Positions 1,219 to 54,329 of a stretch of DNA of 64,000 bases are shown in pieces. The first letter of the stretch is position 1. Each line of letters opens with the position of its first letter. The translations under genes and the position numbers were made by a program. The notes under the pieces were generated by a model that did not search any database, was not told the DNA's origin, and saw only the letters and a list, made by a program, of their open reading frames with translations. This DNA comes from Psammoneis japonica (taxonomy: Eukaryota): positions 1 to 64,000 of the forward strand of contig QPGO01000084.1 in assembly GCA_008632985.1 (NCBI GenBank). Direction: 5' to 3'.

Positions 1219-1250
1219 CATCTTTTGCACAACTTTTCCAGCAAAAAAAC

Positions 1251-8329: not shown

Positions 8330-8458
8330 AAGTTAATGTGTGTGTTGAGATTTGCTTGAGAGGCTGGTGACAGAATGGCAGAGTGCATGAAAGATGATCA
8401 CATTTGCTTTCTACGTCGTCCTCTTCTTGCATTTCAAACAAAACCCTTTGGCAACATT

Positions 8459-13641: not shown

Positions 13642-14039
13642 AGCTGCACAGTTGGCGAGAGCAGTTGGAAGAAGAAGGGGTCGAGATTGGATTCGCTTAC
13701 TGTGTCGTCGCTGTCCTAAAGCGTCATGGTCTTCTGCTACCTGCTACCTTCGACCTTCGACGACGTGCCGCGGGACTGCTCGAGCTCTCTAGCTAGAGAG
13801 AGCGCGCACAAAAATAGTGAGCATGCACTCCACTGGCGACAGACAGGCAGTTCGTAGAAACTTCATAGGCAGATAGGAATTTACGAGCTTTTTGTACTGA
13901 AATAAAAACTCTGGAGGCTACAGGATAGATCAGGATTTAGACAAGTCGAACCCCAGAGTAACCGTTCAACACATTCATTTTTATTCATGCCATTCATGCT
14001 GTTCATCCTAAGGAACCCCAAATTTCCAATTGACCGAGC

Positions 14040-16830: not shown

Positions 16831-17001
16831 TTATGTGCCAGGCCCTTAAGTGTTGTTCCAGTCCCCTACATGGGCTGTGGGGCGACCCCAATTGTGCGTT
16901 GTCGTTAGCTTAAGTTAGCTGCTGACTTGAGAAACCTAGTGCCATGTGTTGTTATTTTTATGTTTAACCGTTTTAATCAAAGGACAGCATTACTGAGTCT
17001 C

Positions 17002-21404: not shown

Positions 21405-23733
21405 TCAAGTTTCGTTCGTTCTGTTTTTTTCGTTCGAAGCAATGGGAAGTGCACGGCGCCCTGTGGCTTCTCTAACTTCAAACTTGAGTTCTATGCTCAA
21501 TAGAAAATTGCCCTGAAGATTGTCCCGGGCAAAAAAGTGCACGCTCAAACCGTAGTATCCCGGCACCAAATCACGACCCCGATTCATGTCAAAAACAGTG
21601 TAAGGAACAGAGTTGTCCACAGTGGTGACTTGATCCGTAGCTCCGTAGTTAAAAGGGAACTCGTATAGTTCCAAAATGGCACTTTCCTCCCCTAGGCAAA
21701 ATGGACGAGCCTCAATGTTCACTTCATAGCTGGGCAGCGTAAGAACACCGTTACCCAGTTGATCTTCAATAAGGCCGATGGCACTGTTGGTATCAGCGTT
21801 CCAAAGAATAAGCTTCACATTTTCCGTCTCAATCTGAAACTTGATTTCAGCACTGGCCAACCATTCGCCCTTGTTGTTGTCTTTGGCGTAAATGTGGGCG
21901 CAGATTGAGTAGTGGCCGGGTATCAAAGTGCGGCCGAAGACGATATCCGTGGCGCTACCTCCAAAGGCAGTGTAGGGGACCTTGTTTTCAATAGCAGTCA
22001 GGGTATCCACCATACCTGCAGAGTTCAAACAAACTGTGAGACATGTAATTGTAGATTCATCATCATCGCCAGTAGAGCTACGCAAGAAAGAGACTTACCA
22101 TTGTTAAATGGGAACATATATGTCTCTAGGAGAGCACTCTCTTCGTCGCAAGAATGTGTGGGTCTAGCCTCGAAGCTGACTTGATAATTGGGCAAACAGA
22201 GAACACCATTGACCAAGTGATCTTTCAGCTTGCCGACCTCGGTATTGGTGTCGGCATTCCACAGGTAAAACTCGACCTTGCAATCGCAACCGTCTTCAGC
22301 GGCGGTCTTGAATTTGGTCTCAGCACTGGCCAACCATTCGCCCTTGTTGTCGTCCTTAGCGTAAATGTGAGCGCAGATTGAGTAGTGGCCGGGTACCAAA
22401 GTGCGCCCGAAGACGATATCCGTGGCGCTACCTCCAAAGGCAGTGTAGGGGACTTTGTTTTCAACAGCAGTCAGGGTATCCACCATACCTGCAAAGTTCA
22501 AACAAACTGTGAGACATACAATTGTAGATTCATCATCATCGCCAGTAGAGCTACGCAAGAAAGAGACTTACCATTGTTAAATGGGAACATATATGTCTCC
22601 ACGAGTGCACTCTCTTCACCGCAAGAATGTGTGGCTCTAGCCTCGAAGCTGACTTGAAAATTGGGCAAACAGAGAACACCATTAACCAAGTGATCTTTCA
22701 GCTTGCCGACCTCGGTATTGGTGTCGGCATTCCACAGGTAAAACTCGATCTTGCAATCGCAATCGTCTGTAGCGGAGGTCTTGAATTTGGTCTCAGCACT
22801 GGCCAACCATTCGCCCTTGTTGTCGTCCTTAGCGTAAATGTGAGCGAAGAGTGAGTAGTGGCCGGGTACCAAAGTGCGGCCGAAGACGATATCCGTGGCG
22901 CTACCACCAAAGGCAGTGTAGGGGACTTTGTTTTCAACAGCAGTCAGGGTATCCACCATACCTGCAAAGTTCAAACAAAGTGTGAGACACGCAATATTGT
23001 AGATTCGCCATCATCGTCATTAGAGCTACGCAAGAGACTTACCATTGTTAAACGCGAATATATGTGTCTCTACGAGAGCACTCTCTTCGTTGCAAGACTG
23101 TGTTGCTCTAGCCTCGAAGCTGACTTGATAATTGGGCAAACAGAGAACACCATTAACCAAGTGATCTTCCAGCCTGCCGACCTCAACATTGGTGTCGGCG
23201 TTCCACAAATAAAAATCGACATCGCATTTCGACTCAGTGGGTGAAGGTGGTGGTGGTGACGGTGTCTTTCCCTTCCCTTTCCCCTTCCCTTTCCCCTTCG
23301 CCTTTGATTTTGGCTTGAATTGCGATCTAGACGCGGGCGCTTCTGCTTTTAATTTTGATTTAACTTTTGGCGCTGGTCCCTTTGGTTTTGATTTAGATGT
23401 ACCTTCAGAGGTGTCACTAGTACTGGGTGCAAGTGGTGGTGGTGACGGTGACGGTGATTTCCCCTTCACCTTTGATTTTGGCTTGGGTTGCGATCCAGGC
23501 GATGGCGCTGCTGCCTTTGAATGTGATTTAGCTTTTGGCGCTGGTCCCTTAGGTTCTGATTTAGCAGTATCTTCAGAGGTGTTGCTAGTACTTGTCATAC
23601 CCTCCAAAGCATCCGCTTCCACGGCGGAGATCGATGAGGGGGCCGACAAAAAGACGGCAACCGCAAGTACGGCCATCAACAAAATGACAACCGTAAGAAC
23701 CAAGGTGGCCTTTTTGCAAGAACGAGAGAACAT
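21405..23733 (-). CDS. Secreted or membrane-anchored protein with a Lys/Pro-rich region and four ~130-aa repeats; introns 22016-22098, 22489-22571, 22962-23042
   Basis: Hydrophobic N-terminus, KPKSK/PSPPP region and repeats beginning FYLWNADTN. 473-bp tandem units each carry a GTAAGT...TGCAG intron, giving an in-frame FNNG|MVD junction. Confidence 0.85.
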
Positions 23734-29099: not shown

Positions 29100-30837
29100 A
29101 GGTCGGTGAGATTGTCTTGTCCAGAGGATTGGGCGTCATTGGGATAGTAATGCTGCTTGCACTCATAGCTGCGCCAAAGCTACGCAGACTACGAAAACAT
29201 CGAAAAGTTTTTCTTATCTCTTTTTGGTGTTGGATTGGGAGTACCTGAATCATCGCAAGGGATGCTCAGATCCTCAACTCCTGCCTGGTTGCTCGAAGTA
29301 CCTGTACCGGTGGAAGACGTAGTTGACGGTGCCAGCGTTGGTGCTGGTGTCGGATTCAATGTCGGCTTTGGTGTAGAGGTCCCAGTAAGCAATGGCGTGG
29401 GTGCTATCGTCAGTGCAGAAGGAGGTGTCGGTGTCGGTGTCGGAACTTAAGTACCTGAACCGATGGGCGGAGGAGGGATTATCAACTCCACAACTCCTGC
29501 CGGTCCCTTCGAAAACTTGATTGGATTGCTTGCGCGTAGGCACGACTTGAGCTTAAACGAGATGGTTAGCGAGCCCAAACATTCCAAATGTTGAGCTTAC
29601 ATTTTAAGAAAATCAAATGTCGATGTATCCCCCTGCCCAACAAAGTTTTCAACACCAACAAGGTGACATCGTATCCATCCCGTTACAAGCGAGCGATACC
29701 GATAGGGGATAATAGAAAAATGGAGCCACACCGATCTGTTCGATTTCTACAGATACATCAACCAAATCATTCTGACTCACAGTGACTTCCATCCTGCTAA
29801 CAAGAAATGAATAACCCATGTGGTTGCTTGCGGCCTTGGCTCTCACCAAATCATTGTACTCGTATCCCGGAAAATTCGAATCAAAAGCGTAGTTCCCACG
29901 CATGTAGGTAGAGCATGTGTGGTGTCAACGCAGCAAGTAAATTCTTGTTGGTATTCATCATACGGATTGGGAAAGGTATCTGAAAAGGCAATCTTTTGTA
30001 GGGGAGGAGCTAGCTCGCCACCCATGACGTTGTCTCTCCAAAAGTCGGTGGCATCGGTGAGTTCTACCGTCGGCCAAAACCAATACGACGCTCCCGTCCT
30101 GTTTGATAATGTGAAGCGCGCAAAGGAGTCGTCGTGAAAGCCAATGCGACCCTTTTTAGCATCCACTGGATACCTAATCTGCAAGTGCGTAGTTTGAAAC
30201 GCAGATTGGTAGCACGATACGACTGCGTTGGAAGGTATGCCACTACCCCCAGTACCCCAACAAACCGGCTGGAACGAACGCCAACGAGGATCACCGTTGT
30301 ACTGCTCACCAATTGCTGCAGAGCTGCAAGAAGCAATGGGCTTGCGTAGTCAGGAGATTGGCCGCCGCCATACGTGCCGTAATTTTGGAGCCCGAGCCCA
30401 TTGTCAATGAGAAACTGAGGCACGCAGTTTCAAGTTGCCTCTTTTGGGGTAGTTTAGAATGAATCTTAGAATGACGTGCCTGTTCCTATTCAAATACCCT
30501 ACAAACAGAATGAGAACATTTGGTGCAAGCGCAGCAGTTTCATATGAGCAACGCACTACGCACTCACTCCAATCAAAGGCGTTGTTACCCGTCATGGTGG
30601 TGTTTAGCCCAACGTTGTAGAATTCTGGAGAAGAAGGAATATCCGTGCGCTCCTTTGCTGGATCAGCCCAGACCGGGCTTGTCAAAAAGCCTTTGAACGG
30701 ATTTCGGATTGCCTGGCGGCGGCGTCTGAGGCAAATCCGCGGACGTCAAAACGTAAAACGTGATGAGGCCGCGCAAAGATACGACCGACACAAAGAATCA
30801 AGGTCGACGCAACGTGGCGGTACAACATCTTGGTCAT
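29100..30837 (-). pseudogene. Secreted DUF4832-like glycoside-hydrolase-related protein with a Pro/Thr tail, frameshifted
   Basis: Signal peptide; HVILRFILNYP, SPDY, IGFHDDSFA, MGGE..P, HMGY and GVAPFxY motifs split across frames. Confidence 0.65.
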
Positions 30838-31095
30838 GGCGTTTGGCTTCAGTTGCCGATCCAAAAATTGCAATCTAAATTGTTCGAGGTGCCGGTACAC
30901 AAAGACACGTCGTCTCATTTCTTTTCTTTTTTTGCGCGCGAGTTGAAGAACGGCATTTGGTGTCGGGTTGAGCAGTACGGGCGCAGATGTGACGCACGAA
31001 AAAATTTTGAGGGACATCCACGACTAAAACTCGTTTTTGCGTGCCTCCACTCCGTACTTTTGCACATCACTTCACGATACCTCGACACATCGACG

Positions 31096-32150
31096 ATGGG
31101 AATTAGCGACCTGTGGGTCAAAGCCCTCGGCAATGTCAACAAAGTACAGTCTGCATCATTTTCTGAGGCCAGTGGAAAAAGAATTGGGATCGATGTGTCG
31201 ATGTGGCTTCATTAAACATGCCACAAAGATGCCACCGCTCAGTGCCTCCTGTCACAGCCACCGCATCCACCAAAGAGTTTGTTGGCAGTGCTTAAGTCCA
31301 TGCATAATAAGCTTGTCTCAGCTGGGGTATCTCCTGTGATTTTTTTGATGGGGCAAGGCATCCAATGAAGAGTGCAGCGAGGACCACTTGAAACAACAAG
31401 ATGGCGAAAGCAGAGGCATGGATGGACGACTGCACAAAGAAAGGCAAAGCAGGTGACGTGATTGCTGAGGTCGACCGACACCAATCATTACAAAGAGTAA
31501 GAGATTTGTCTAATCCTTCACCCGACATTGTTGCTTGTGTGGTCAAAGAATGGATGATTGGCAATGGAATCCAATGTGAATGCGCTCCGTGTGAGGCCGA
31601 GCACCAACTCGTCAAAATGGAGGCAGACGGTCGCATCGATGGTGTCATGATGGAGGACGGTGACGCCATTGTTCTGGGGGCTAAGGTTGTCCATTTTAAG
31701 GTTGACATGCGGTTTGGCACATGGAAAGTGCACGAAAGGGACTCGTTGCCCGCTCATTGTCCCATCGGCGCGCTTGTGACTTCAAACACTGGGCGGCAAC
31801 AGCAAATCTTCTTGGCTCCGACCACAACCAATGAACAGAAAACATGGGGTTCTCAAGAATCTTCAAGAGCATCCTTCCGAGGCTTGCTGGCACAGATTGG
31901 CCTGGGGACACTGCAGCCAGAGTGGTTGAGAAAGCGTTTCGACGGGCTGCAATCCCAGCGGGCTGTGCAAAGAACTTTGACAAAGCTGCAGCGCTGTCCA
32001 TGCACTGCCCGGTCCTTGACAATGATGACAATCTGGTTCCACTGAATCCATTGGAAGGAAATGCAGGAGACTGTCCTGGTCTGTCTTGGGGAGGTGTCAT
32101 TGGCTTCAATCTTCTTGAGCTGCTCCCCGATGTTGTCACAGTGAGCCATT
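31096..32150 (+). pseudogene. XPG/Exo1/FEN1-family 5' nuclease, decayed
   Basis: MGISDLW..GKRIGIDVSMWLH, a PV..FDG-like segment, APCEAEHQL (family APYEA), EDGDAIVLG. Confidence 0.8.
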
Positions 32151-33629
32151 GATTGAGAAATTTTCGGCTCCTCTGTACAATGCATCTGAGAATGAGAAAT
32201 TTGTTGGGAAGGAGCCACCTTCACATGCTTGGCTTAATTTTGAAACCCTGCCCATTCCATGTGTGCAAACAAATGGCCAATTTGGCAAGATTCCCTGTTT
32301 GCACAATTTCATTTCTCCACACACAAACCAGCTCATAATTTTCACGTCAACACAGTTGCAAAACATCTGCATTTTTCTTGCCTGTTGCATGCATGGGGCA
32401 ATTCTTCCATTTTGGTCTCAACAGTGCATCTCCCTCTCCCAACCACTCCCTGAGTGACAATGGTGCCTCCACCTCCCTTGATGCATTGGGGCCTCTCCAC
32501 CATTCCCTTGGTTCAAGCACCAAAGGGTCAATGTCCCTGTCTCTCCAGAATGGCAATTTGTTGCACCATTTTCCATTTCATCCCTCTGGCAATCAATCCT
32601 CCACCCAGGGTGACATGTGCCATTTTGGCAGTGCAGCAACCACAATCATGTGCAGAAGTGCACTGGCTTCATGTGCTTTGTCACATGCCCCTCTCCCTTG
32701 ACCGCATCATCTTCTTCTTTGTTTGGCTGTGCTCTCATTGTGTCGTCAGAGAGCTTGCTGACAGAAACATCTTCTGACAGGCCTTTTCATTTCCATGTCT
32801 TTGTCAGCAGCTCTCAGAGCCAGGCAATGAGGAGGTCTGGGTTCCAATGGGTGCAGCATGTGATGTTGCAATCCAAAGGATTGCCCTGAAAAACTGCCCA
32901 GTGGTCAAAAACAGAATGCACCATGGCTTGTCCTTGTGCAAAGGTTTGAAGATCAGTCTCTGGCACAGAACCATGCAGGACAGGAATGAAGCCTTTGACA
33001 ACATGAAGTGTTGACCCCAGTGTCAGTTTGCGTTGAATGACACATCCTCTTCATTTGGTCAAAAGACGTGGTTGAGTGGCATCCACAATTTCACCGGGGA
33101 GCTGGACTTGCAATCTGTGTGCCAGCTCCATGAGTCACAGAGTTGCAGCAAGAAGTGATGAATGAATGGCACACCTCAAGGTTGGGATCATCTGACCACT
33201 GCCATGATGAATGGGTTTGTCTGCCAAAACTGCATCTAGAGTCTTGATTTTGGCACCTCGGACTCGCTTTTCACACAAGGGAACATCCCATGTTGCCCAA
33301 TGGAACCTTGAACAATGATGTTGGAACAACACAAGCTCAACATTGAGATTTTTTGCAATGCTTTGGCAGTTCAGTCTTGCACATGAAAGCGCTCCCCAAG
33401 CAAATGGCGGTCAAACCACATGTGCAAAATCCCTGCAGGTTGGGTTGCACAATGTCCAGAATGACCCACAGCTTGTCATGTGATCTTCTTGTGAGGCCAA
33501 CCTTGTTGGTCTCCACTTCATCAATTGCTGGACCCTTCTTGTTGGACGCAGCAGAGCCGAGCCCTCCTCTCGTCAGGCTCTGCAAGTCCAAGTGCACAGG
33601 GCGCACACCACTTGCAAAACTGCTTCATG

Positions 33630-33950
33630 TTGACAGCGCACAAGAGCTGGACTTGGAACTTGACAAAACAACTCTGGAGTGACTTTCATGGAATGATTGT
33701 GGAGTTCTGTTGTGTGTTTGAGTCATCTGTTGTGATGCGCCCTTGCAGTTGAGCATCGATCTCATGGTTTGGCGTCTCATTCTCGTGGTTGGGTGCACAG
33801 GAACCTCTTCACATTGACAGTGCACGAGAGCTGGATGTGGAACTCAACAAAATGACCTGGAATGACTTTTGTGGAGCGGAACGATTGTGGAGTGCTGTTG
33901 TGCATTTGAATCATCTGTCAATGTGTCCTTGCAGTTGAGCGTCGATCTCG
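33630..33950 (+). repeat. Imperfect direct repeat, ~185-bp period
   Basis: gagctgga..tggaact..acaaaa...gattgtggagt.ctgttgtg..tttga.tcatctgt...ccttgcagttgagc.tcgatctc occurs twice. Confidence 0.75.
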
Positions 33951-34217
33951 CGGTGATGCGCGCTCCTGGTGCAACGTGAGACTCCTCATGTGGAAATCTG
34001 CAAATCTGGGGGGGGGGGGCGTCTTTGTGAGATTGTCAAAGGCGGTTTGATTGCCAGTGTGGCCAGATGAACAGGGATGAACTGACAGAAAAAGAACACA
34101 ATGTGCATCAAAGTGCAAGACATGCGGCCACGGGCATCGCTGCAAATTGTGATCGTGACACAGAATCTCTGCCCCAATGTGCAGGGCAGTCAACCAGAGC
34201 TGACACACTGAGTGATT

Positions 34218-36529
34218 TCAAGGGGAGGTGCTGTGTTCGTGGCGTCCCAGGCACGCATCCGTTTGCATGGCTTGGACTTCTGTCAAGGCTTTCGCCGCCG
34301 TGATGCGACTCTCCACATCAAAGACAAGCACGTGCTTGCACAGGTCAACAAGGGGCTTCCAGTCCTCATCATCATTGTGAAGATCTTTGAGAATCTCAAG
34401 CAATGCTTGCTCACTGACACGAGCTTTTAGTTTTTCGCCTCCTGTCATGAGCTCATAGAAGACTGCCCCCAGAGACCACACGTCTGCAGCGTGCTTGCAG
34501 TCACAGGAAAGAAAGACTTCAGGCGCCTGCAGGTGCGGACGAAGAAGCAAGCTGGTGAGAAGAGAATCCACGTGCTGCACAGTTCAGTTTCACATTGCGT
34601 CACTCTAGAAACAACCCACCATGTGTCCAAAGGTTCCTCTTTGCTTGGTGTTCCCTTTGTCTGAGGGCACCTTTGCCTCTTCGAAATCGGCAAGTTTGCA
34701 TGTGCCGTCCTTGATGAGAATGTTCTTCGGCTTCAAATCGCGATGCATGATTCCCGCTTCGTGGCACTTCACCACTCCAGTCAAGCAACCACACATGACC
34801 TCCTTTACCCACGCGATGTGTTCTTTCTTGGAAATGATGTCATTTTCTAGATTTTCCCGCATCTCATTGATCTTGTCAGAGAGATCGCAATCACAGCGTT
34901 CCACAATGAGACTCGTCAAGTGCAAATTGAATTCTTCGATGCGCTTGAGACTGTGCGCGCACACGGTCGCCACATTCTCCTCATGGTGCACTAAAGTGTG
35001 GCATTGTAAGGACTGGCAAAAACCATCAACAACTTGGTTCTCCTTGGTTTCCTTGATCTTCACCGCCACTTCATGTTCCGGGTGTGTTCAGCAGGGTGAG
35101 CCGCAAAGGCGGCACCAAATGTTCCTGCGCCAAGGAAGGCGTGAAGATTGAAATTCTCCAACTGCCACCGATCGCCGTAGAGGCTCACTTGCAATGGAGT
35201 TTCCGCTTCGGTCATCTCCCTTGTGTCCGGATCAGTGGTCGCATTCAGGCCGTCCGTGATGCTTTGTCTCAAAAGGTCGTTGGTGCAGTCGTGTTTGTGA
35301 CGAACGCTTCCATGAGAGGACGGATCTCCTTGTTTTGGGCCATGTCATTGTAGTCAAAGACACATGGCTTTCCCGAGTCGATGAATTCTTGACCGTGAAA
35401 GAGAGATCCCGGATGCTGTGTGGCTTTGACTGATGCTTCCACAACAGAAGCAGGGGACATGTTGCCAGATGTGGCGCCGACTTCTTGGTGGATCGGTGCA
35501 AACTGGCAGTCGGGATGATCTGCAAGGAGTTGGCCCGTCATTGCTTCAATGAAAGCCTGCTCCAAATTGCATCCTGGGCATTTCTCATCTAGATCTTGCA
35601 ACAAACGGCAGAGATTTCGAGTCGACGGATCATGCACAATGGAAAGCATCTGCTTCATAAAGACGTCAGACAATGCAATGACACTGTCGGCGGTGGCCTC
35701 GGCGGCCACGTCGTCGTTGCTTGTCGCCGTGTCGGGGGCTTTGTTGGCGCACATGTCGGCCTTGGGGATGCCACAAAGAAAAAAGAAAACAAGGTCTTCT
35801 GGCATCTTGGTGACGCTGGGGCAATGCAAACACATTTTCCTGTCAGCCGCCTTGACCAAATTCGGGAAGGGTTTGGCTTCGTCACTCTTAAAGTGCTCGA
35901 CAAAAGCCTTCAAAGCAGTCAACCCACTTGCAGGCGATGTCCTTGCCGACACCCATGATGTGAGCGAGGACACATGTGCGGGTGTTGCGGCGGGCAACAG
36001 CCTTGTCGAAGAGTTTTGTGGCACCTTGGAGTGTGGACAACGCTTCCTGATGATGTTCCTTGCCACACACGCAGGGAATGACAGACCGAAGCAAGCAGAT
36101 GGAAACAGCGCTCCTGTGCTCCAGTGCAATGCTGCTCAAATGACAAAGATGACAGAGAGCAAAAAGGAGGTCCGTCAAGCAGGCTTGAGCATCTTTGGGC
36201 ATCCATCGTTTTGAAGGGGGGACGACTGCCCACTTGAGCACTTTGGCCACATTCCGTTCCGAGGGAGAGGGCTGGGACATCCGGGAAAAGTCGCTCAGCT
36301 TTTCTTTCATAAATTCTCCGAAAGAAGTTGAAAGGAGAGAGTCAATTCGACCTTTCTTGAGGGAATGATGTGACTTTTCTTTGTTCGCGAAGTCGCCTTT
36401 GCCATCGGACGTCATGCATTGAACGAGTTCACCATTGCATTCAGTGATGCCCTCCGCCTTGGGTGCTTTCTCTGGGTTCTGGATCATGGGGTTCTTGATG
36501 CTGGGAGTTTCGACTCTCTTTCCGCTCAT
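34218..36529 (-). pseudogene. Ser/Thr protein kinase with long N-terminal region, intron 34527-34619
   Basis: LGAGTFG, VAVK, HRDLKPKNIL, LADF, GTFGHM|APE and DVWSLG motifs; a few frameshifts. Confidence 0.85.
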
Positions 36530-37699
36530 GGCAGGCGTGAGTTGTTTGGAAGTGACAGCAAGAACGGCAAGAGACAGCAGACAGCAATGCACTTGATTTG
36601 ATTGTGTTGCGAGTTGCGTTTTATGACGTGGCGGAGAGGGCGAGTTTTACATTGCATGCAAGCGCAATGGAATCTCCAAAATTCTTCCCGGAATGGGCGA
36701 TTTTCAAGGGACATTTTTCTGATTTCAACATAATTTCTGGTCACGCCTCGCATTGCTTTTTGTCACACATTTTTTTAAAAAGGATGAAAAATGTTTTTTT
36801 TCGTTTTTTTATCAGTTGTGACGCAATCATGGAAAAAATGCCCACATCGAATTCTGCACCGTTAGCGAACTTTTATTGCTGAATGCACCGATGTGGCTGG
36901 AATTGATTTTTAGAAATTTGGAGTAGATTTCTGCGTGCTAAGTTGAAGTTCATTTTGTTGGACTCCTCTCCTGTCATCAAAGATGTTCAATGTCAATGTC
37001 AATCCTCTCATGTTGTTGTGTGAATGGTGTTGTGAACGAGAAACAAAAGTGGTGTGAATCATCATCACCTTGTCGGATGCTTCTTCTGCTGTTCACGAGT
37101 TCCCAGCCAACAACAACAAAAGCGACAAGAAAAAAAAAAAAGAGAATGAGCAAAATGCCATTTGCGTCGGGGAACAACAAGCCACACAAAAATCAAATGG
37201 GATGGTGTGCAATGTGGCTGATGCTGCTGCTTCCCAAGGATCACCAATCACTGGTTCGGCAACTCACCAGGAATGAACTGACGCTGTGTTTGGACCATTG
37301 TTTTTCCCTTCAAACTTCGACTCGGATCATTCTCCACCACGACGGGGAACGGGGCCATCCAATGTTGCTCACTGTGTCTCGTGTGAGGCTCAAATCCTGC
37401 CGCGCTCTTCTTCTGCAAAACACAGCGATGATGACCACAAAGTTGGTGTTGCGCTGTCCAAACTTGCCTTGGGGCTTTGTGCGAAGCAAGCAGCTGTGGG
37501 ATCGGGAGCACACGCCGCAGGTGTCAAGGAGGGTCCATGCTGGTGGATGTCAATGGGGTTGGAATGTTGGCAGAACCATCCAAGCAAGCTTTGGGACGAA
37601 TGTGGCAATGCGGAGGAATCCCCGACAATGCAGGCGCAGACAGCAAAGAAGACTTTCTGATCAAGTTTCTGACACTCATCAAGGATGGCACAGTGATCA

Positions 37700-38055
37700 T
37701 CATAGAAAATCTGTGGCACAGATTTGGGGTTCAGATTTCTCACAGATTTTCAAGGGGTCCGCAGAAACAGTTGCAGATTTTTAAAAAGCACAGGTTTTCA
37801 ATTGTTTGGCTAAAACTGGGGCCAGTTTTTTCCAAAATTCACCAAATCATGCGATCTTTGAAGAACCCTTCTGCAGACCCGGCGCGGTGAAAGCAGGCCC
37901 GGTGCAGTCCATGCACACCCTGCGCACATCATTTGTGCCACTGAGGGGGGAAGACAGATGGGGTCAGATTCCAGATTTTCCGTTCTAAAATCTCACAGAT
38001 TTCATTTGGCCCCTCAAATGATCTTGCAGATTTTCAAATCAACACAGATTTTCTG
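37700..38055 (+). repeat. Cluster of about ten CAGATT(T) motifs, possible subterminal repeats of a DNA transposon
   Basis: cacagattt, ttcagattt and gcagatttt repeated in two groups around a GC-rich core at ~37876-37910. Confidence 0.5.
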
Positions 38056-41000
38056 TGATGATCAGGGTGCATGAGTTTTGCTTGTCAGCCTCTGCTGGTG
38101 TCTTGTGCCTTGTGCACATGCCTCCCATGTGGCATTGGCGGCTCACAGTTTACACAGCCAGAAGTGAACAACAGAAGGTTCTGCCTGTGCAGCAACTGTG
38201 GTGTGGTTGTTGTTCGCTGCCACTCTCCATTGGCACGGCTGCAGCTGGAATGCAGAAAAAGATGTCTGGGGCTTTTCAGCTGCCCTTGGGCGGGCACACC
38301 ACTTGTCTCCACTCTGTGGGCATTTTTGCACTCTGAAAACAAGTGCATTTTTGTTTGACATCACGTCTGACAACAGCAAGAGCATCAGTGTGTGAGACGT
38401 CAACAAGGCTTTTGGAAAGCTCTGGCAAAGGTGCTGCCACAGAAGGGCAGAGAGCTGCGCTGCCTCTAGTTTTTTTTGTCAAATTATTTCAAACTTTTTG
38501 CTGTGGCCCTGTGCTCCTTTTTCTGCCTTGGGGTGTGCTTTGGAGTGGCGCGCGCTTTTGTCATTGTGCTTGCCCTTTTTCCAAAGCACTGCCTGGCCAT
38601 TTCTTTGTTCTGTTGTCAGGCCTCTGAAAGGTCTCTCCAGCACCTTGCTTGGCAAAGCATGTGTGCTCTTTTCTTGTTGGTAAAGGTCACAGACTTTTGA
38701 AAAAAAAAATTGGTTGTGCCTTTTTGTTTGGGAAGAGTTGGAGGAAAAAAACAAAGCAAAGCACTCAGCACAAATCAGCACGCACACCATGATCATCAGC
38801 CAAGCAGCAATGGCAGCCAGAGCATTTTTTGGCACATCATTTTTGCTGCATCTGTGGCCACAAAAGGAGCAGCAAAATCTGGGTGATTGGTCATGTGATT
38901 TTGCTTTGTGTCATCTTTGCTGCAACAACTGTGTGCTGCATCACTTTGACAACAATGCTTTTGTGCATCTGCGCCCCAAGTGACCAGCTGAGCATGTCTT
39001 GACAAAAGCTGTGTTGAAGCCCATGCTCCACAATGAGTTGCAAAATTTTCCATGCACTCTGCAAATTGTTGAGGCTGGGCTCCATTTCTCCTTCCCAGCT
39101 GTGCGCACAATCTTTGAATGCCTGCCTCACTTTTTTCAGCTCATTTGCTGCTGACTTGATGCCTGGTGCACCATTTCAGCAAGTGCAAGTGACTCACACC
39201 AACAAAGTCCCATGACCACAAAATGGCTTTAAACAACATAAAAGGGAACTGTGTTTTCCTTTTGCTGCCAACTTGCTTTGCCCCTCCCCCCACTGATGAG
39301 CCAAAGAGAGACTTTGCTCATCTTGTCATTGTCTCTGAGTGCTGTTCTCATTCCTCATTGTGCAAGCTCTAAGAAGCTGGGGCACTCATTGTGATTGTTG
39401 ACATTGCCAGTGAGAAAAACAGCAGGCAAATTTTGTTCTTCCTGGCAGCCAGCAACACATGTGAGATTCCAAAACTTCACAACTGCCCCCACTTGGTGCA
39501 AAGGGGGGTGGCAGCATTGTCAGCTTGGACAAACCAAAAGAGCATCAAGAGCCAAGCAGGTTGTCCACATCAAGACATTGTTGAGCATCAAATTTGATTT
39601 CGGTTGATCACAAAAAATGCCAGGCTTTTCAGATCTCACTTCATGTCACTCTTTGTTGTGCACCTGAAGTGGTGCAAGATGAACCATGGCCACAACAGCA
39701 ATGCAGCCTGGCCTTGCAACAGCAATGCTTGGGCCTTCTGTCCAAACCAAGCATGTCAGTCTCAGTGACATTGAGCTTCAAGCCATCATAAAAGCTCTTG
39801 AAATGAGGAAATGCAGGAACAAAAAGATTGGACAGCATCTCAAAAGAACAGGGAAAATCAAGTGTGTCAACATGACAGATCTTTGCATTTGTGCCTGTTT
39901 GGGTTGGTCATGAAAGAAGTGCCTTGGCTGGCAAGCAGCAACTCCAGCCAATCAAAATGATGCTTTCTTTTGGGGCTCTCAAACTTGGAACTGAGTGAAA
40001 AGTTGAGCCTGTGCATCAGCGGGGCAGAGTTGTGACCCATCTCACAATTTTTGGAGATTTTTTTCATGTGTTGCTTCCAGTCCAAGTTGGGGCTGTGTGT
40101 GACATTGGCCCTGCAGAATTTTGTGCACAAGCTCAGCAGCAAAATCACAAACAAGGCAACAAATAATGTGCAAATGATTGCCAATGGAAAAAGAGGCAAT
40201 TTTGCTGCTGTGAGCCTTTTCCTCCTCAACACTTGCTGTGCATCATTTTCATTTTACCTGGGCATGCTCTTCAGACATTAAAGAACATGCCCAGCCTGTT
40301 TTTGTTCTCACAAATGAAGAAAAAATGAAAAGCCTTTGGCTTTGCAAAACAGGGAGAGTGTGAATTTCATAAGATCACACATGGAAATGCATGTGCGCTG
40401 CACACAGAGCACACTCAAAAGCTTTCATGTCACAGCACAGCAGTGTGAGGTCCCTCACCCAGAGCTGGAGTGCATCTTTGTCCCAATCTTGACATTAACG
40501 GGTTAGTTTGTCACATGTGGTTTGGACACAACATGATGGTCTGCACACATGTTTTGCCAGAGCAAGTTGTGAATTTTTCAATGATGCTTCAATGGCATCA
40601 CTGAAGAGAGCAAATGGAGATCATCAGCTTGAGTTTTTTTTTAAAATGTGCAGTCAGCTGTGCTGCCTGTCACAAGTTCAAGTCACAGATTTTGCAGCAG
40701 GGCAGCAATTGCAAGAAGCCCTGGCACACAGCTCAGACACCACTGAAGCTGGCAACACCACCAAGAGCAGCCACAGCTCTACAAAAAATGGCCCAAAGAC
40801 ATGGCAGCAGACATTTTTAGACTGCAGTCATCTGTGCAGCCTGTCAGCCACCACACACACTTGTCAACAAAAACTGGGCAGCTGGACAATGCTGCCGGCT
40901 GAGCAAACAGCTGTTTCTTTGTGAAAGCTTCTGGGCTGGCTTTCTGCTGTCTCAATGAGTGTGTCTTGTGTCTCAAGCAGCAGAGCAGCACATGCCTGCT

Positions 41001-42699
41001 TGGCTGAGCAGCCAGCTGCTGCACCACTCTTTTTTGCAACAAACTTTGCAGCAAAAAACACTCCAAGGCTCTCTGGCCCAGCTTTGGTTGGAAAGAAGAG
41101 CTGACAACACATGTGAAAGGAACAGCAGACAGAGGTTCTGCATGTGGTTGAAAAATTTGGTTCAAAAATTGTTGCCTGTTTCCATGACTTGCAAAGTGGC
41201 ACATTTTCAACTTGTGCCCAGCTCTCACAGGATGGCTCCTTGGCTGTGCATGTCTGCTTTGGGGGTCTCTCATCACACCATGTGTGCTTGCTTGCACACC
41301 ACCAGTGTGGGTGATGGTCAGGTGTGCTGTTGCCCTTTTGTGCACACATGGTGCTGAGCCAAAAAAGTGCAACAACATGCCACCAACACACTCCAGCTCC
41401 AGGTGTGATCTTGCACTGCTGAGCTGCAAAACTGATGTTTTTATTGCCCATTTCTGACAATGTCAGTTGGCCTGTTGTGCTCTTTGATGTCTGAAGAATG
41501 TGGCCAAGGGCAAGAAAGAAACTGCACACGTCAAAAATGGGGGGGGCATGATCACAAAGCTGCCCCTTTTTCTGCAGGTGATGATCAATTTTTTCATCAT
41601 CCAACACAGCATTGCAAGTCAAAGCGCAACATGTCCTGAAAAGTCTCTTGAGAGCAGAGGGCCTTGGCTGGTGGTCTTTTCCATGATTGTCATTTGGCTG
41701 GCCATCAAAAGGGGTGTGACTCACACCGCTGTCAGAGACAGACAGGCAGCTGCAAGCATGCTTTGTTCTGGGCCATGTGGTGTCACAGAGAGTTGTTGTC
41801 AAGAGGTCATGCAGCGCTTCTTTCCTTTGCCCCTGTGTTGTGAGTTGAAAACGCTTGATGTTGGAAGAAGGAAGATTTTCCAATTTGAAAGTTACAAGGA
41901 CAAGTGGCACTGATCAAAAAGTGCAGCAGCATTGCTTTTGTTTTTGTTTTGTTGGTTGGGGAGAACTGTCCAGTGTGCCCGCCCATGAGAAGTTTGTGAG
42001 CAATGTCATCCAGCAGCACAGGGGAACAGCAGATGTGAAGCAGGGGCGGAACTGAGTCATGTCGGCAGTTGGGGCTGTGCTTTGGTGGAGCAGCGAGCAA
42101 GTTGGTCAGCCAAGGGCATGGCAATCTCAAAGCTGAGGCTCTGCAGGCCCCAGCAAGGTGGTGGAGTGGCAGTGTGGTGAGGAGTGAGACCAAAGCAGGC
42201 GGCAGAGGCAGCTCACCTTGCAGCCAGTGGTGGCTCTGCAGGTCTGCAGGGAAGATTGCAGAAGACAACATGCCAACAGCTGGGCACAGATGCAGACAGC
42301 ATGAGCAGCTGGGTGTTAAAAACAAGACTTGTTGCCCACTGAGGAGGTGGATGGAGTGGTGGGATTTGAAGCGGCACAACACAGGTTGCAGTGATCAATC
42401 TCCGCAGGCACCCATGGTGCACACTTTTGTTCTTCATTCATGTTGCCCATCTTCAACCTGTGTGAGTGCTGTTTGAAGCCATTTGACCATCATGTTGGAT
42501 GCTGGCCAATTGCTTTGCTCACTCTTTTCCAGCCAGCAGGAGCAGCAGCCAGCCCTGGCTGCATCAGCTGCAGTGTCAGCAGATCAGTGTGTGGAGAGCA
42601 CCTGTCAGCTGGCACATTGCTTTGTGACAGTTTTCTCTTTTGGGGTTGACTGCTCTCAAAATGACCAAATTTACAAGTGGTCTTTGTGCACAAAATTGC

Positions 42700-43900
42700 A
42701 CCCAATGACTTTCAAAGGCCATGGGACATGAGTTCCTTCATGCAAATGCATTGGACAGGTTGAGTTTGGAGTTGCTCCAGTCATTTTTTGGTTGGAAAAT
42801 GATTGACTCCTGGCCACAGTTGATTGGCTGTTTTTTATTTTGAGGTCATTGATGTTGAATGTTAAACAACAAACAAATGCCCATTGTTTTGTCATGTGAT
42901 TGTTCACCTGAATCTGAACATGATGCACAAACTGTTGTCCACTGAGAATGATCTGCATGATCTGGTTTCTTCTTGGTGGGTTTTAGAGCTTGTGCTTTTT
43001 TGTTGGCATGCATGAAACAACTCCTCAACTCTCTTGATGATGCATGCCCAGATTTCTGTCGTGTGGTTGAAACTTGATGTTTGCAAGAATGACAATCCTC
43101 GTGCGTGCTGCTGTTTTGCATGGTCATCTGCAGCAGGAACCTGAGAACCTTCTTGGAGCCCTCTTGCACACCTGAAATGACAAAGGAGCTCTCACTCTCA
43201 ATGCCAATGACGTGCCCTTGTTTGTTTTCCTGCCATCAAACTTCTTCCTCAGATGAGTGCCCTTTCTTGTTTTGTCTCTGGACAGAACCACACAAACCCA
43301 ATTGTCTTTGCAGACAAAGTTGTTGACAACCAGGCACACTGAGTGCCCTCCTTTGATTTTTTGTGAGTGCTGCCAGCAGAAAATGAAGATGCACACTGGT
43401 TGATTTGTGCCATGCCAGCCATTGCCAGCTCTGCTTTGTTCAGGTCTTGCAACACTTTGGGGCTTTTTCCCTTGCCAATCCCAAACACATTTCACTTTTT
43501 GGTGGCTTGTTTGAATCTTTCTTCACTTGGTTCAACCCTTTGGAAGATGAGCTGCAGCAACCAAGAGCTTCTTCATTCCCTTTCTTTGTTGCATGGGATT
43601 TTGGAGAAAGAGAAGTGAGCTGGACAGGAAATGAAATCTTCTGACTCTTGACAATGAGAAGTGCAGTGGCAGGATGAGCTGTGTGAGAGCAGCAACAACA
43701 TTTTCCAAGTTCACTTTAAAAATGTTTTCAGATCTTTCAGTGTTGCACTTCATTCTTTCTCGTGGTCAATCATCAGGTGGTTGCACACCAAGCACACTCA
43801 AGCAAAGTGTTTGTTGCCTTCCTTGTGGGCAAGATGGTCTGATGTGGCTTTTGAGCTTCTGTCTGCTGCTTCAGCAATTCTGGTGTCAGTGACAAGCATG
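42700..43900 (-). mobile_element. Possible Helitron-associated (DUF6570-like) coding relic
   Basis: Fragments VCLVCNH, IGK..PKVLQDLNKAELAM, SFSAG..HK/KIKGGH and VCVVL resemble the region upstream of Helitron Rep. Heavily decayed. Confidence 0.3.
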
Positions 43901-45089
43901 GAGACAGCCAGGACAAGCATGTTGTTGTCAGTTTTTGAGCACTCATCTTTCAAGAAGATTGTGTTGTGTCATGTCAAGAGCAAATGATCAAAGGTGCAGT
44001 GCAAGAAATGTGGAGAGGTTGGATGCAAATTTGATTGACGTGCACACATTCATTGGAGATGACACAAAACCAACTTTGGCTGGACAGTGAGGGAAAGTCA
44101 AAAAATGTCATTTTTCATTTTGTCCAATCAAATTCTTGCTGTCTCACTTTGTTTCTGGTTGTTTGTTGACAAACATCAATGCCCAGCAATGCACAAGACT
44201 CTTGACATCACTCTGACATCATCAGTGCATTTCTCCAGCAAGGGGTTTTCTGAAATTGTGTCGTTGTTGACACTTGTCAATGACTGGCTCAAATGCCCAC
44301 AAAACATTTTCAAAAATTTGAAAAACAAACCAGTGTGAAAGGCAAAGACATCATGAGGAACAAGAGCCGTGTGCTTTCATTTTGCTCTGTCAGACTGTCT
44401 CACAACTTTTTTTTTGTCACCAACATCATGATTTTTGCAGTGGGGGTGCATTCAGTTCTCGTTTCCTTGCCACCATCACTGCTCTTGACAAAGAAGGGAA
44501 CAAGAACAAGACTGCCACACAAAGAAACCAAGCCCCCTGAGAAGAAAACAGAAGGAAAGGCAGACTCCATGTCCGAGAAAAAGAAGCCTTCTCTTTGCTT
44601 TCAAATGGCTGGCACTTCAGTGGATGACAAGAGTCAGTCAGCACTCATCTGGTTGTGATGAATGGAAACATGGCCAAGCCACATTTTTTTCAACTTGTTC
44701 ATCATTTCATCAAGAACTGGGTGACAGATCACAAGGACAACAAGTGGTGCAAGAAAAAGCACCTTGTTGATGATGATGAAACATGCGATGTTCTTCATTC
44801 TCCACTCATCATGCCGGATCATCATTTGTGAACTGCAGGTGCCATTGTCAAGTGGACAAAGTGGATGTTGTGCAGCCAATGTGCAGTTGCACAAGCAAGG
44901 GGTGGTTGTCACGTGCAGTTTTTGCAGGCTGTGCGCACAAAATTTGAATTGATTTTGGCACCGTGCCAAGCACGATGGTGGTTTTTGTTGTCTTCCAGTG
45001 GGCAAGACATTGATGGTCTCTGTGGGTGACAGGTTGGTGTGCTGTCCGGATGGGTGGGGATTGATTGACTGAGCAGGGGTTCTTCAGTG

Positions 45090-46355
45090 TCTGTGAGAAG
45101 GGACAGACCTGCACCATCTTCCCACTGGGGTCATCTGGAGCTGATCTGAGATGAGGGAATGCTGGATCCCCTGAGGCAACAGTGAGCCACCCAAGCTGTG
45201 GTGATGCTCATTCTCACATTGACACAACCACATGCTTCAGAGTGTGGCTTTTGTCACTTGTTTGACAGCTTTGACGCTGTCTTGCACAGCATCACCTTGG
45301 CTTCCTTGCCAAGTGGTCCATTGCATGACACAACAAAGGGCATGAAATGATGGTGCTGATCAAGACAGGGCTTGAGGCACTTGTTCTTTTTCTCACATTT
45401 GTTTCTTGCTGGGACTTCTTCTGGTGTTTTGGACAGGTGTGACTTCGCATCCGTGTCAGGGATTCAAACATCCATCACCATGTCTGTCATTTTCCATTCC
45501 AAAATCTCACGCCAAGAAGGTCTCCATGATTGCTGTCACTGGACTTGTTGGAGTTGGCATTTCCTGGGGAACTGTCAGACAAGATGCTTGGGCTTCCCGA
45601 GATGGCACAACCAGTGGGGTTAATTTGAGGTTCGTTGCATGCGCAGGAAGGTTTGCAAGCCTTGCCAATTTGGTCACCCAGGTTGTCATGTGCTTCGTCA
45701 TGTCATGAGATGACTGGGCCACCTTTCTTGCACTTGAGGGTGTGGTCAACAGAGAATTTGCATTCACATCCATCACAGCACTCCGGGAGGTCTGGCAGAG
45801 TGCTGCCACACTGCAAGAAGAGCGCATCACGGAACTCTTGGCATGAGAGTTCTGTGCCGCTCAGCATCGAAGGGCATGCTGACAGCCGTGTGCTGGTCTT
45901 GGTGCTGCACTTGACAGCTCTGGCCTGAATGTTGGGCAGGGCATCCTGAGGATCATTCTGAGGATCTCCCCATGTGCTTTGACTTTTTGATTGGCTGCTT
46001 CTTGTTTCACTTTGCATGTGGTGTCCACGTTTGTCAATCACGTGGGAGCACGTAAGAGTGCTTGCTTCACAGTTGTGAGCCATGGGCTCTGTTGGACGAG
46101 TGATGGGCAGTCCCAAAAATTTGATTGGGAGGATGGACACGGCCAGTCTCGGGTCATTTTTTGGCAAGCAGGGTCTCACAGGGTCTCACCGATCAGCGCC
46201 GGCAGAAAATTGTGCTGCATCGCATGCTCCATGTCGGCAAAGAATTTGCCACAGTCCTTTGCTGCACGCTGGACACATTGCCGCTGGTGTTGTGGGGACT
46301 TCTGTAGACCGGCGCAGGCGGTCTGAGGGTGGTGAATCGCGATCTTGGCGAGTCC
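45090..46355 (-). mobile_element. 5'-truncated CRE-like (restriction-like endonuclease) non-LTR retrotransposon, copy 1
   Basis: HPQTACAGLQKS, LPIKFLGL, EFRDAL...CDGC..FSVDHTLKCKKGG, DV*IPDTDAKS, KKNKCLKPCL...FMPFVVS..GKEAK, PQWEDGAGL. Confidence 0.85.
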
Positions 46356-46723
46356 CTGTCAAGTTGGAGAGGCGCACGAAGATGACGATGAGACAAAGTC
46401 TTGGTTTGCCGCAGATCTCTACGAGACTGACATGTAACATCCACTTTTCTAACACGTGCAACAATGTCATGACTGTCAGTTTGATTGTTTTCTTTTATTT
46501 TTATAGTAAAATTTTAAAAGACAACGACACACAGCCGTTCAAACAAGAACTGTGTAGAATCACCGATGTTACCTCGCCACTTTTTAGGCTGTCAACGGGA
46601 AAGCACCGACCTTCTCTTTCTGCCCGCTCAGAGTACGGTACCGAAAGTACGCGGCACTCATAACATCTCAGGAATAAAAACACGACGTGCTTTTAGTTGA
46701 GCATTACGTCGTGCGTACTGCAC

Positions 46724-52631: not shown

Positions 52632-53720
52632 TTAAGCATGACGGAGCTGCTGGTTGTTTGCAGCGTGCTCGTCATCGACAAGCTCCCGAGATCCGTGGGC
52701 GTATAGATCATCGTTCATGTTGTCGGCCTGGGCCCTCATGTCCTTGCACATCTTGTCAAAGCTCGAGGCGGAAATGAGGTGGCACTTGCGGTCCACCTGC
52801 CAGGTAATGGGAGTAAAGGGAGAGCAGATTTCATTGTTACGGGCGGTACCGGTAGTGGAGCCAGTGTACTTGGCAATGTCGGTTCCCATTTCACCATCGA
52901 CAATCATACCGCGGAAGAGGTCTGGGTAGTAGTAGTCTTCGTCGTTGACAACGGTAAATACTTGGGACTGGACACCAATCTGCTGAGCAGTGTTGGTGAT
53001 GACGTCGTCACGGCAGAAAACACCGTCATAAAAGGGAGTCTGGTACTGGAAGGGGGTACCGCAGGCACCGGCAGCAGAGTGTGGCCAGTGAACTTCGTAG
53101 GTTTGGCCAACCATCATTCCGATGCAGTGCTGCCAGTTGAAGGGAGTGTTGAACTTGGGGTCGTTCTCGTCGTAGTATCTGCACTGGAATCCCTGACGGC
53201 CTTCGTGGAAATCGAGGGGACCGGTACCAATCTCGTCAAACTCGCCAGCGGAGTAGTGCTCGGCCCCAAGATGCCAGTGAACATTGACAGGGCACAGGCC
53301 GGCTTCGAAGTAGGAGGTAGTGATGGGTTCGGCGTCGGTCTCGCGGTCGCCATTGTATCCCTTCGTGACGTTGGCCCCGGATTGTTCTCCGGTTTGGGTC
53401 ATCTCGTCAATGATACAGGCAACATTGGGAAGATCGGGACGCTTGCCCTGGCACGGGTTGGGTCCTTGAACTGTAGAGACCTCAACCTCCTTGTTCTTGC
53501 TCTTCTCGTTGTCGCGGTCGACAGCGAGGTAGATGGTGGAGATGAGGAGACCGATGACACATGCTCCCAAAAATGCCATGAGAAGCTTCATGCGCTTGAG
53601 AGCAACGTTGGGCATGACAGTGACGCCGGAAGAAGCGCGGCTGCTGGCAGCGGTGGCATCATCTTGGGGAGTCTTATCGACGGGAGCTCCGGATTCAATT
53701 TCCGTGGTTTCCTTGCACAT
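52632..53720 (-). CDS. Delta-class carbonic anhydrase, membrane-anchored
   Basis: CPVNVHWHLGAEH, TYEVHWPHSAAG, YQTPFYDGVFC, GSTTG and WQVDRKCH motifs; N-terminal TM helix; strong codon bias. Confidence 0.93.
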   Translation of the reverse strand: MCKETTEIESGAPVDKTPQDDATAASSRASSGVTVMPNVALKRMKLLMAFLGACVIGLLISTIYLAVDRDNEKSKNKEVEVSTVQGPNPCQGKRPDLPNVACIIDEMTQTGEQSGANVTKGYNGDRETDAEPITTSYFEAGLCPVNVHWHLGAEHYSAGEFDEIGTGPLDFHEGRQGFQCRYYDENDPKFNTPFNWQHCIGMMVGQTYEVHWPHSAAGACGTPFQYQTPFYDGVFCRDDVITNTAQQIGVQSQVFTVVNDEDYYYPDLFRGMIVDGEMGTDIAKYTGSTTGTARNNEICSPFTPITWQVDRKCHLISASSFDKMCKDMRAQADNMNDDLYAHGSRELVDDEHAANNQQLRHA

Positions 53721-53897
53721 GTTGTTGCTCTTTACAAAGAGTTGAAACAAAAAATTGTGAGAAGTGCGATCGGTTTTTCTGCTGTCGCTGTGTTGGCTGT
53801 GGTGAGAAAGGTGACACGTGACAAAAAGGATTCGCTTGAAGATTGAATGCCGTGCCACATCAGTGTGAACGCACCAATCAGAATGGACGATCGCTCA

Positions 53898-54255
53898 ACG
53901 TCAACAAACAATATGGTATCAAAAATGAAGCATGACGTTTCGTCGAATGATTTATTTAACATATGAACGTCATAATTACGTCTTCGACGCTGTAATATTT
54001 AACGAAAATTCGTGACGTGTCTGGAATGTGACGTTGATCGCTGGTGTGAACTTTGTACCGTAGGCGCGAATACTGTACAATATCCGTCCAGCCAGCTGCT
54101 TCTCGATGATGCAGTGGGCGAAGCTGCCAGATGCGACGCAATGATCACGTCTGAATGCTTAAGTGCAGTTGCGTCGAAATGACGTTCGATACGAATCATG
54201 TTAAGTGCATCTTCCGTCACAAATCCGACACGTAAGATCGACGCAAACCTGACGT
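53898..54255. promoter_or_regulatory. Cluster of seven TGACGT/ACGTCA (CCRE-like) motifs upstream of delta-CA
   Basis: Motifs at 53898, 53933, 53967, 54013, 54029, 54180 and 54250. Confidence 0.7.
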
Positions 54256-54329
54256 TGGCTGCTTCCGCTCCCCCCCCCCCCCGCACAAATGATGCACGGT
54301 CGTGGAGCTGCTTCTCTCAAGTAAAAAAA

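Follow-up and report, generated by a model that had tools for sequence, protein, structure and literature searches.

A kinase pseudogene that has lost TpA but kept CpG points to regional TpA hypermutation in a probable diatom

The 64-kb window analyzed here (positions 1 to 64,000 of contig QPGO01000084.1) is eukaryotic, with long open reading frames (ORFs) and few introns. On its minus strand, positions 36529 (ATG) to 34218 hold a gene that combines an N-terminal domain with a Ser/Thr kinase domain and is read in four successive frames. This gene has been almost emptied of the dinucleotide TpA (TA), while its CpG (CG) was kept. Its parts were placed by alignment to P0012, a 673-amino-acid (aa) protein encoded on a 2168-nucleotide (nt) contig of a public assembly and found by HMMER with the 288-aa middle piece of the gene. 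The features of the gene, all on the minus strand, are as follows.

35903-36529, minus strand: first frame, N-terminal domain ending ...WVDCFEGF; aligns to P0012 residues 89-242, which end WVDAFEGW
35899-35906, minus strand: frameshift 1 at a T run (TTTTG), joining ...FEGF and EHFKSDEAK; both frames are collinear with P0012, and an intron cannot fit
35272-35898, minus strand: second frame, middle domain of unknown function; BLASTP match to P0012 residues 302-431 (E = 3e-11)
35272-35344, minus strand: interval in which frameshift 2 lies, the frames overlapping and the exact place being within the interval; from collinearity with P0012
35093-35344, minus strand: third frame, comprising the linker and kinase subdomain I (GAGTFGAA); corresponds to P0012 residues 421-497 (DAGSFGCVFKSHP)
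35075-35095, minus strand: frameshift 3, close to a CCC run in the kinase domain, after GxGxxG and before VAVK; frames ...FAAHPAEH / THPEHEVAVK, the spacing excluding an intron
34620-35087, minus strand: fourth frame, kinase core with VAVK, HRDLKPKN, DFE (for DFG) and GTFGHM; Pfam Pkinase E = 6.5e-15, 36% identity to P0012 residues 495-656
34623-34625, minus strand: His codon CAC of the activation segment, aligned with Tyr in P0012 and P0014 and with Phe in P0016
34527-34619, minus strand: 93-nt intron GTGGGT...CTGCAG with a single TA (CTAG); the P0012 gene model reads through at the same position
34218-34526, minus strand: last exon, with APEVF...DVWSLG... and a TGA stop codon at 34220-34218; matches positions 155-259 of the Pfam Pkinase profile (E = 1.5e-9)

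The alignments to P0012 pass straight across the three frame changes, indicating that these are frameshifts and not introns. The Pkinase domain (PF00069, the eukaryotic protein kinase superfamily) extends over two exons and is broken by the frameshifts; its two pieces score 55.7 and 38.1 bits against a Pfam cut-off of 31.7. Most kinase motifs can still be read (GAGTFG, VAVK, HRDLKPKN, APE and DVWSLG). The consensus of the kinase activation segment is GTxxYxAPE. At the intron donor, the minus strand reads GGA ACC TTT GGA CAC ATG followed by GTGGGT, and the next exon opens with GCG CCT GAA (A P E). The activation segment GTFGH(CAC)MAPE and the donor GTGGGT, both named in a first-pass annotation of the window, were thus located on the minus strand, with the His codon at 34625-34623 and the intron at 34619-34527. 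Instead of the unbroken frame and the intact DFG and GT..Y.APE of a functional kinase, three frameshifts, DFE and GTFGHMAPE were found. With its frameshifts, the change of DFG to DFE and that of the activation-loop Tyr to His, the kinase gene is a pseudogene.

The sequence of the gene is reproduced by contigs of run X1 (657,387 records, 140.7 Mb), which cover positions 33800-36921 at a depth of 62.8. Between 34014 and 36795 they show no indel and two substitutions (35642 and 36369). None of the three frameshift sites has an indel in an X1 contig, showing that the frameshifts are present in the reads too. The kinase gene sits at single-copy depth. Relative to the gene, read depth is raised 2- to 5.6-fold in the flanks (33800-34013 and 36796-37000) and 2- to 2.6-fold in a tandem duplication at 33690-33960 (period about 187 nt). 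No terminal repeats were found flanking the gene, and flank read depth is the one observation that points to repeats. The differences between window and X1 comprise 35642 G->A, 36369 T->C (a TG/CG polymorphism) and one G fewer in a G run near 34008; they are possibly allelic. Two other runs, X2 and X3, contributed no sequence to this stretch.

Expected dinucleotide counts were derived from the densities in the window's own normal blocks, those that are not TA-poor (30,204 nt). The 2312-nt locus (34218-36529) contains 13 TA (observed/expected ratio, o/e, 0.097), 118 CG (o/e 0.77), 207 TG and 199 CA. By the densities of the normal blocks, 96.4 TA were expected (Poisson P = 1.6e-26). RTAY (R, purine; Y, pyrimidine) was absent, with 30.5 occurrences expected (P = 5.9e-14); TA in mixed contexts fell to 7 from an expected 48.5, and YTAR to 6 from 17.4. 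For CG, the expected count was 123.2 and P(<=118) was 0.34, so that loss of CG is undetectable at the locus. TG and CA together reached 406 (341 expected). The frequency of TpA was 0.0056 in the kinase gene and 0.0041 across all TA-poor blocks of the window, and the GC content was 51.8% in windows 34001-36000, as against about 47.6% in normal blocks. The first-pass annotation had counted by eye about 13 TA, none of them in RTAY, next to abundant CG. With the contexts of all 13 TA listed, our counts agree with this and lie far beyond chance, confirming TA depletion with CG retention at 34218-36529.

TA depletion was found in a mosaic of five blocks across the window, separated by gene blocks with a TA o/e of 0.4-0.9 and a CG o/e of 0.7-1.3. 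Recognizable genes of the window encode PP2C, a 1380-aa GT8/sulfotransferase protein, a delta carbonic anhydrase, a BTB protein and an XPG-family protein; a 539-aa ORF has no Pfam family. With this ORF and the delta carbonic anhydrase as queries, two Atlas look-alike searches gave nearest clusters (scores 0.94-0.96) in groups for which Bacillariophyta is the most frequent known phylum; the assignment to a diatom follows these leads and is probable, short of proof. The blocks, and the parts that concern the kinase gene, are listed here.

1-10200, 14000-16500, 31500-46100, 54200-57700 and 62800-64000: five TA-poor blocks; TA o/e mostly 0.00-0.15, TG and CA o/e about 1.6-2.1
31500-46100: TA-poor block round the kinase gene; CG o/e 0.00-0.25 in nearly all 500-nt windows of 38000-45000
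33500-37700: TA-poor segment that keeps CpG; TA o/e 0.00-0.24 and CG o/e 0.51-0.99 in 500-nt windows

The clustering is regional, with block borders that are mostly sharp (within 250-500 nt) and in some cases graded. Base composition is almost alike in TA-poor and normal blocks, and the CG o/e inside TA-poor blocks is widely spread, from 0.00 to 0.99. Taken over the TA-poor blocks, the TA lost plus the CG lost approximately equals the TG and CA gained, which is the pattern expected from transitions at both palindromic dinucleotides.

The loss of TA follows a context rule. All TA-poor blocks together contain 4 RTAY and 72 YTAR, compared with 398 and 227 in normal blocks of similar size (Fisher P = 1.9e-24). 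Survival of the 16 NTAN words fits the product of one factor per strand, which is set by the base 3' of the A and rises from about 0.09 (T) through 0.16 (C) and 0.39 (G) to 0.74 (A). At two partly edited edges RTAY had disappeared first (10000-10800, none against 11.1 expected; 16400-17000, none against 8.3). Three other edges lack such RTAY-first loss: 30300-31500 (12 against 16.7), 53200-54200 (12 against 13.9) and 62500-63000 (6 against 7.0). The edge at 53200-54200, by the border at 54200, is the 5' part of the delta carbonic anhydrase gene, with a TA o/e of 0.34-0.36 and 76 CG where 52 were expected. The lowered TA there can be either leakage of editing or ordinary composition.

There is one TA in the 93-nt intron of the kinase gene, and depletion in the flanks (33500-34217 and 36530-37700) matches that in the exons. 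There is no strand bias, TG and CA being nearly equal in number at the locus. The equal depletion of intron and flanks and the balance of TG and CA indicate a regional action on genomic DNA without bias for a transcript strand. Repeats were also compared: two copies at 45098-45890 and 55420-56072, lying in two TA-poor blocks and about 70% identical, differ by 93 transitions and 38 transversions. The commonest dinucleotide difference between them is CA versus TG (19 doubles), a pattern that opposite-strand hits on an ancestral TA or CG in the two copies would produce. This fits repeats that were edited in situ.

The loss of TA proved to be independent of the loss of CG. At the kinase segment, survival was 0.35 for YTAR and 0.14 for mixed-context TA, within the ranges over TA-poor sub-blocks (0.07-0.73 and 0.00-0.20, respectively), and the CG density of the locus was 0.96 of normal. 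The other sub-blocks keep 0.05-0.85 of normal CG; the values of 0.84-0.85 come from the two sub-blocks that contain the kinase gene, and neighboring sub-blocks keep 0.05-0.36. Over 16 sub-blocks, TA survival and CG survival were not significantly correlated (rho 0.33, p 0.21). A similar picture was obtained at the edge 46000-46400, where RTAY is absent (5.6 expected) and CG is not reduced (22, with 20.9 expected). A full dose of TA loss with CG kept, at the kinase segment and at this edge, shows that the two depletions are separable. The first-pass annotation had proposed that TA was changed without substantial CpG deamination; the retained CG, a TA dose like that of other sub-blocks and the lack of a significant correlation bear this out.

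Elsewhere in the block, CpG loss is most likely deamination of 5-methylcytosine (5mC), judging by the literature on diatom methylation. Passages of two papers establish CpG methylation of repeats in diatoms; these passages mention the kinship of DNMT4 and RID, and not TA depletion (PMC5124317, PMC9998398). Decay of 5mC at CpG, with change of CG to TG/CA, resembles the neighboring sub-blocks, in which CG is down to 0.05 of normal. The kinase locus differs in this respect, and its retained CG shows that the TA loss is not a by-product of CpG decay. In the tandem duplication 33690-33960, all five differences between copies of the 34-nt repeat family D1 are CG versus TG/CA, which fits ongoing CpG transitions.

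The direction of change was read from the coding sequence. The kinase gene has 3 Tyr codons among 731, whereas six normal ORFs of the window have 112 among 3672 (Fisher P = 2.8e-6). Conversely, His and Cys codons together number 66 of 731, compared with 205 of 3672 in the normal ORFs (P = 7e-4). The Tyr deficit of about 19 and the His plus Cys excess of about 25 are of similar size. All three surviving Tyr codons are preceded by C and hence none lies in RTAY. This composition test is strong evidence that a once-normal gene was mutated. The surviving TA are distributed over the three codon phases as 3/6/3, compared with 117/111/168 in normal genes; as the Tyr phase is not enriched, nothing suggests that selection resisted the change.

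Comparison with single sites of P0012 is suggestive, given small numbers and a distant homologue. Of nine aligned P0012 Tyr sites, three are His in the kinase gene (CAC, CAT and CAC), one is Cys (TGT) and none is Tyr. One of the His sites is the activation-segment position, where P0012 reads GTPEYM, P0014 reads GTPGYVAPE and P0016 reads GTAGFIAPE. A closest homologue with His or Cys at the same place would have spoken against editing; P0012, the closest found, has Tyr there. Together with the dinucleotide balance and the loss of Tyr matched by a gain of His and Cys, the P0012 sites support the conversion of TA to TG/CA put forward in the first-pass annotation.

The annotation had further proposed that such editing can destroy a gene and leave long open frames. 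The former is not supported: the three frameshifts, which editing cannot produce, also disable the gene and may have come before or after it. The latter held in direction, the mean stop-free run being lengthened to 37 codons from 26.7, but the effect is modest. Since the process makes no new stops (TAA and TAG are removed, or TAA becomes TGA), relics keep long open frames.

P0012 shares the architecture of the kinase gene: all four frames align collinearly with it (25-36% identity), and the two have in common an N-terminal region of about 480 residues. After GTPEYM, its gene model continues into non-kinase sequence exactly at the intron point of the kinase gene, which suggests an intron position common to both. 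The HMMER search that found it covered a database of 1.84 billion representatives and gave three matches, among which P0012 was the only true relative; P0010 and P0011 were rejected as repeat proteins (Big_13, WSK). With the kinase piece as query, nine weak generic kinases (at most 42 bits) and no closer homologue were found among proteins of near lengths, and three generic kinases among longer ones. P0012 as query found itself alone among 8000 candidates scored. Pattern scans of metagenome contigs gave 241 and 246 pattern matches, and one scan of IMG/VR viral contigs with N-terminal-domain patterns gave 141; no relative was confirmed in either. Judging from these searches, with P0012 the sole relative found, the family appears to be lineage-specific and nearly absent from protein databases.

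The nearest recognizable neighbors of the kinase gene are decayed genes of cellular type.

31097-32045, plus strand: XPG/Rad2-family nuclease relic, XPG_N positions 1-38 and XPG_I (E = 1.7e-9); straddles the left border of the TA-poor block
33138-33410 (EFG_IV, E = 1.3e-4) and 32817-33050 (EFG_C, E = 1.4e-4), minus strand: suggested C-terminal part of an EF-G-like relic, the two domains collinear and both below the Pfam cut-offs

In the XPG relic, an in-frame TAA at 31213-31215 cuts XPG_N, and the T7 run near 31340 appears to contain a frameshift. Its XPG_I reads APCEAE, with Cys at a position where Tyr is usual in the XPG_I consensus. The EF-G-like relic lies just downstream of the kinase gene in DNA that is poor in both TA and CG. 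When 224 ORFs of the TA-poor blocks (135 of at least 90 aa and 89 of 55-89 aa) were searched against Pfam, no transposase, reverse transcriptase, integrase or viral hallmark was found; NDC10_II, EFG_IV, EFG_C, DUF7492 and AMG1_III were the sole weak matches. The setting in transposable element (TE) chromatin assumed by the first-pass annotation is not borne out by these ORFs or by the cellular-type neighbors. The NDC10_II match (7201-7809, plus strand, E = 7.5e-6, just under the cut-off) lies in the first TA-poor block and is the only TE-like hint; the domain is related to tyrosine-recombinase (Crypton-like) elements.

Hypermutation at TpA is known from one preprint of 2026 on Bigelowiella natans, which was the sole report found in full-text literature searches; none was found for diatoms. 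According to the main text of this preprint, 231 of 302 nuclear single-nucleotide mutations in mutation-accumulation lines fell in an integrated nucleocytoplasmic large DNA virus (NCLDV) and a virophage, and 230 of these 231 were A->G or T->C, all on TpA, at about 6e-7 per site per generation (bioRxiv 10.64898/2026.01.13.699255). Hypermutation of the B. natans type is marked by a rate about 1000-fold above background in lines or populations. The preprint further describes 124 clusters poor in TA as well as 324 coding sequences whose TpA frequency is 0.0018, and the authors (Mettrop et al.) propose an adenine deaminase of the ADAT2/TadA type (bioRxiv 10.64898/2026.01.13.699255). The likeness to our window lies in the change of TpA to TpG/CpA, in its regional action in clustered, TA-poor and TG/CA-rich stretches, and in its GC-ward direction; here the process is known from its footprint alone. 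B. natans is a chlorarachniophyte (Rhizaria), whereas the present window is probably from a diatom. The targets in B. natans are an NCLDV and a virophage; here an intron-containing kinase relic lies beside XPG-like and EF-G-like relics. The depletion in the window (o/e 0.0-0.15) is far deeper than the Rho of 0.45 given for B. natans NCLDV in that main text. The words CpG, context, flanking, diatom and pseudogene do not occur there, so that the preference for RTAY and the separation from CpG loss seen here are absent from it. The context rule, the CpG separation and the host-type gene as victim are thus new details.

Repeat-induced point mutation (RIP) of fungi offers a second comparison. It too is a dinucleotide-specific transition hypermutation in blocks with sharp or graded edges, and degrades genes in or beside them. 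In contrast to the A:T->G:C change that removes TA here, RIP is a C->T change (CpA->TpA) that raises the content of TA and AT. RIP makes stop codons; the TpA process is unable to create TAA or TAG. RIP depends on duplication; the kinase gene is at single-copy depth. RIP chemistry was rejected, as TA is depleted to an o/e of 0.10 and GC is raised at the locus.

The best overall explanation, which we consider probable, is that of a lineage-specific kinase relic in a domain of regional TpA hypermutation, with CpG loss as a separate process. The relic would derive from a single-copy, intron-containing gene with an N-terminal domain and a Ser/Thr kinase domain in a probable diatom. The 14.6-kb domain round it would have undergone TpA-directed A:T->G:C hypermutation at the DNA level, changing TpA to TpG and, when acting on the other strand, to CpA. 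Such a process would strongly prefer the palindromic RTAY, reading T-A and then T > C > G > A on each strand, and would have removed about 87% of TA, from the exons as well as from the intron and flanks. Within the coding frame, Tyr codons would have become codons for His and Cys. CpG loss, heavy elsewhere in the domain and most likely due to 5mC deamination, would have left a 4.2-kb segment untouched. An adenine deaminase of the ADAT2/TadA type, as proposed in the B. natans preprint, may be the enzyme; we infer this, as well as a targeting signal and a methylation state.

Several points weigh against this explanation. The evidence is a sequence footprint, and the expected values assume an ancestral sequence like the present-day normal blocks of the same window. 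The dinucleotide balance at the locus is approximate, TG plus CA being up by 65 but TA plus CG down by 88. P0012 is a distant relative, compared at the protein level, and the remaining five of the nine aligned Tyr sites are Glu, Val, Pro, Pro and Ile in the kinase gene. Run X1 is possibly the sample behind the assembly, so its independence is uncertain. Moreover, B. natans targets viral insertions, and no viral or TE protein was recognized here.

Genes for Ser/Thr kinases and XPG/FEN-type nucleases are common in giant viruses. The kinase, XPG-like and EF-G-like relics might be cargo of an integrated giant virus or large mobile element, targeted as foreign DNA. The raised read depth of the flanks and the near absence of the family from protein databases would suit such an origin, as would the integrated NCLDV and the virophage that make up the hypermutable regions in the main text on B. 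natans. However, the canonical 93-nt GT-AG intron lies where the P0012 model also reads through, the 224 ORFs scanned contain no capsid, packaging ATPase, polymerase, integrase or transposase domain, and the 141 IMG/VR pattern matches yielded no confirmed relative. We consider a viral or mobile-element cargo unlikely. A single enzyme with A- and C-deaminase activity could cause the loss of both TA and CG, with no 5mC decay, if its C activity needs a condition that is missing at the kinase segment. TA and CG loss do co-localize in most TA-poor blocks and both end in TG/CA, and among the enzymes cited in the preprint are ADAT2 proteins active on A as well as C in DNA (bioRxiv 10.64898/2026.01.13.699255). 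Nevertheless, the kinase segment received the full TA dose with CG kept, the edge 46000-46400 behaves alike, and the two survivals are uncorrelated. In addition, CpG methylation of diatom repeats is established in the passages cited above, and the hypermutable-region mutations of B. natans were A->G or T->C in all but one case. A single enzyme is, in our opinion, quite improbable.

The kinase motifs, being mostly readable, would be compatible with a working gene that became TA-free by selection or codon preference, or with ADAR-like RNA editing followed by retro-copying. Neither agrees with the three frameshifts, the retained intron, the equal depletion of intron and intergenic flanks or the absence of strand bias; moreover, Tyr itself was lost and surviving TA is not enriched at the Tyr codon phase. 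Depletion of intron and flanks without strand bias excludes mRNA editing with retro-copying, and we give these possibilities taken together hardly any credence. Modified bases can give motif-specific base-calling errors in long reads. A sequencing or assembly artefact, for example by systematic miscalls at such bases, is thus conceivable in principle. The X1 contigs, however, reproduce the gene with two substitutions and no indel, and both the Tyr-to-His/Cys pattern and the CA/TG doubles between repeat copies fit real mutations, making an artefact extremely unlikely.

If regional TpA hypermutation formed the kinase relic, a wider proposal can be made, which we put forward tentatively, as somewhat less likely than not. 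The TpA hypermutation of B. natans would also occur in diatoms and hence be widespread in the Stramenopiles-Alveolata-Rhizaria (SAR) group. It would be carried out by a single-strand enzyme that reads T-A-Y and prefers RTAY (ADAT2/TadA-like), would mark chromatin domains independently of cytosine methylation, and would engulf single-copy host-type genes too. On this view, the kinase relic would offer a natural example where protein homology reveals ancestral states and where TA editing and CpG decay can be cleanly told apart. Should the process be the one at work in B. natans, a hypermutation defence directed at TA and acting GC-ward would extend beyond one species to a second, ecologically dominant algal lineage. 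To the main text of the B. natans preprint, the kinase locus adds an extended context (RTAY far above YTAR) that constrains the enzyme. It also adds a clean separation from CpG loss, which argues that silencing or decay in these domains follows two independent pathways, and the finding that the process can reach a single-copy gene with an intron. TpA-edited relics are open to mis-annotation as genes for odd His- and Cys-rich, Tyr-free proteins.

The window also contains two tandem arrays. One (1953-2820, period about 113 nt, units about 90% identical) lies inside a TA-poor block, and the other (21838-23226, period about 473 nt, units 89-93% identical) lies inside a normal block.

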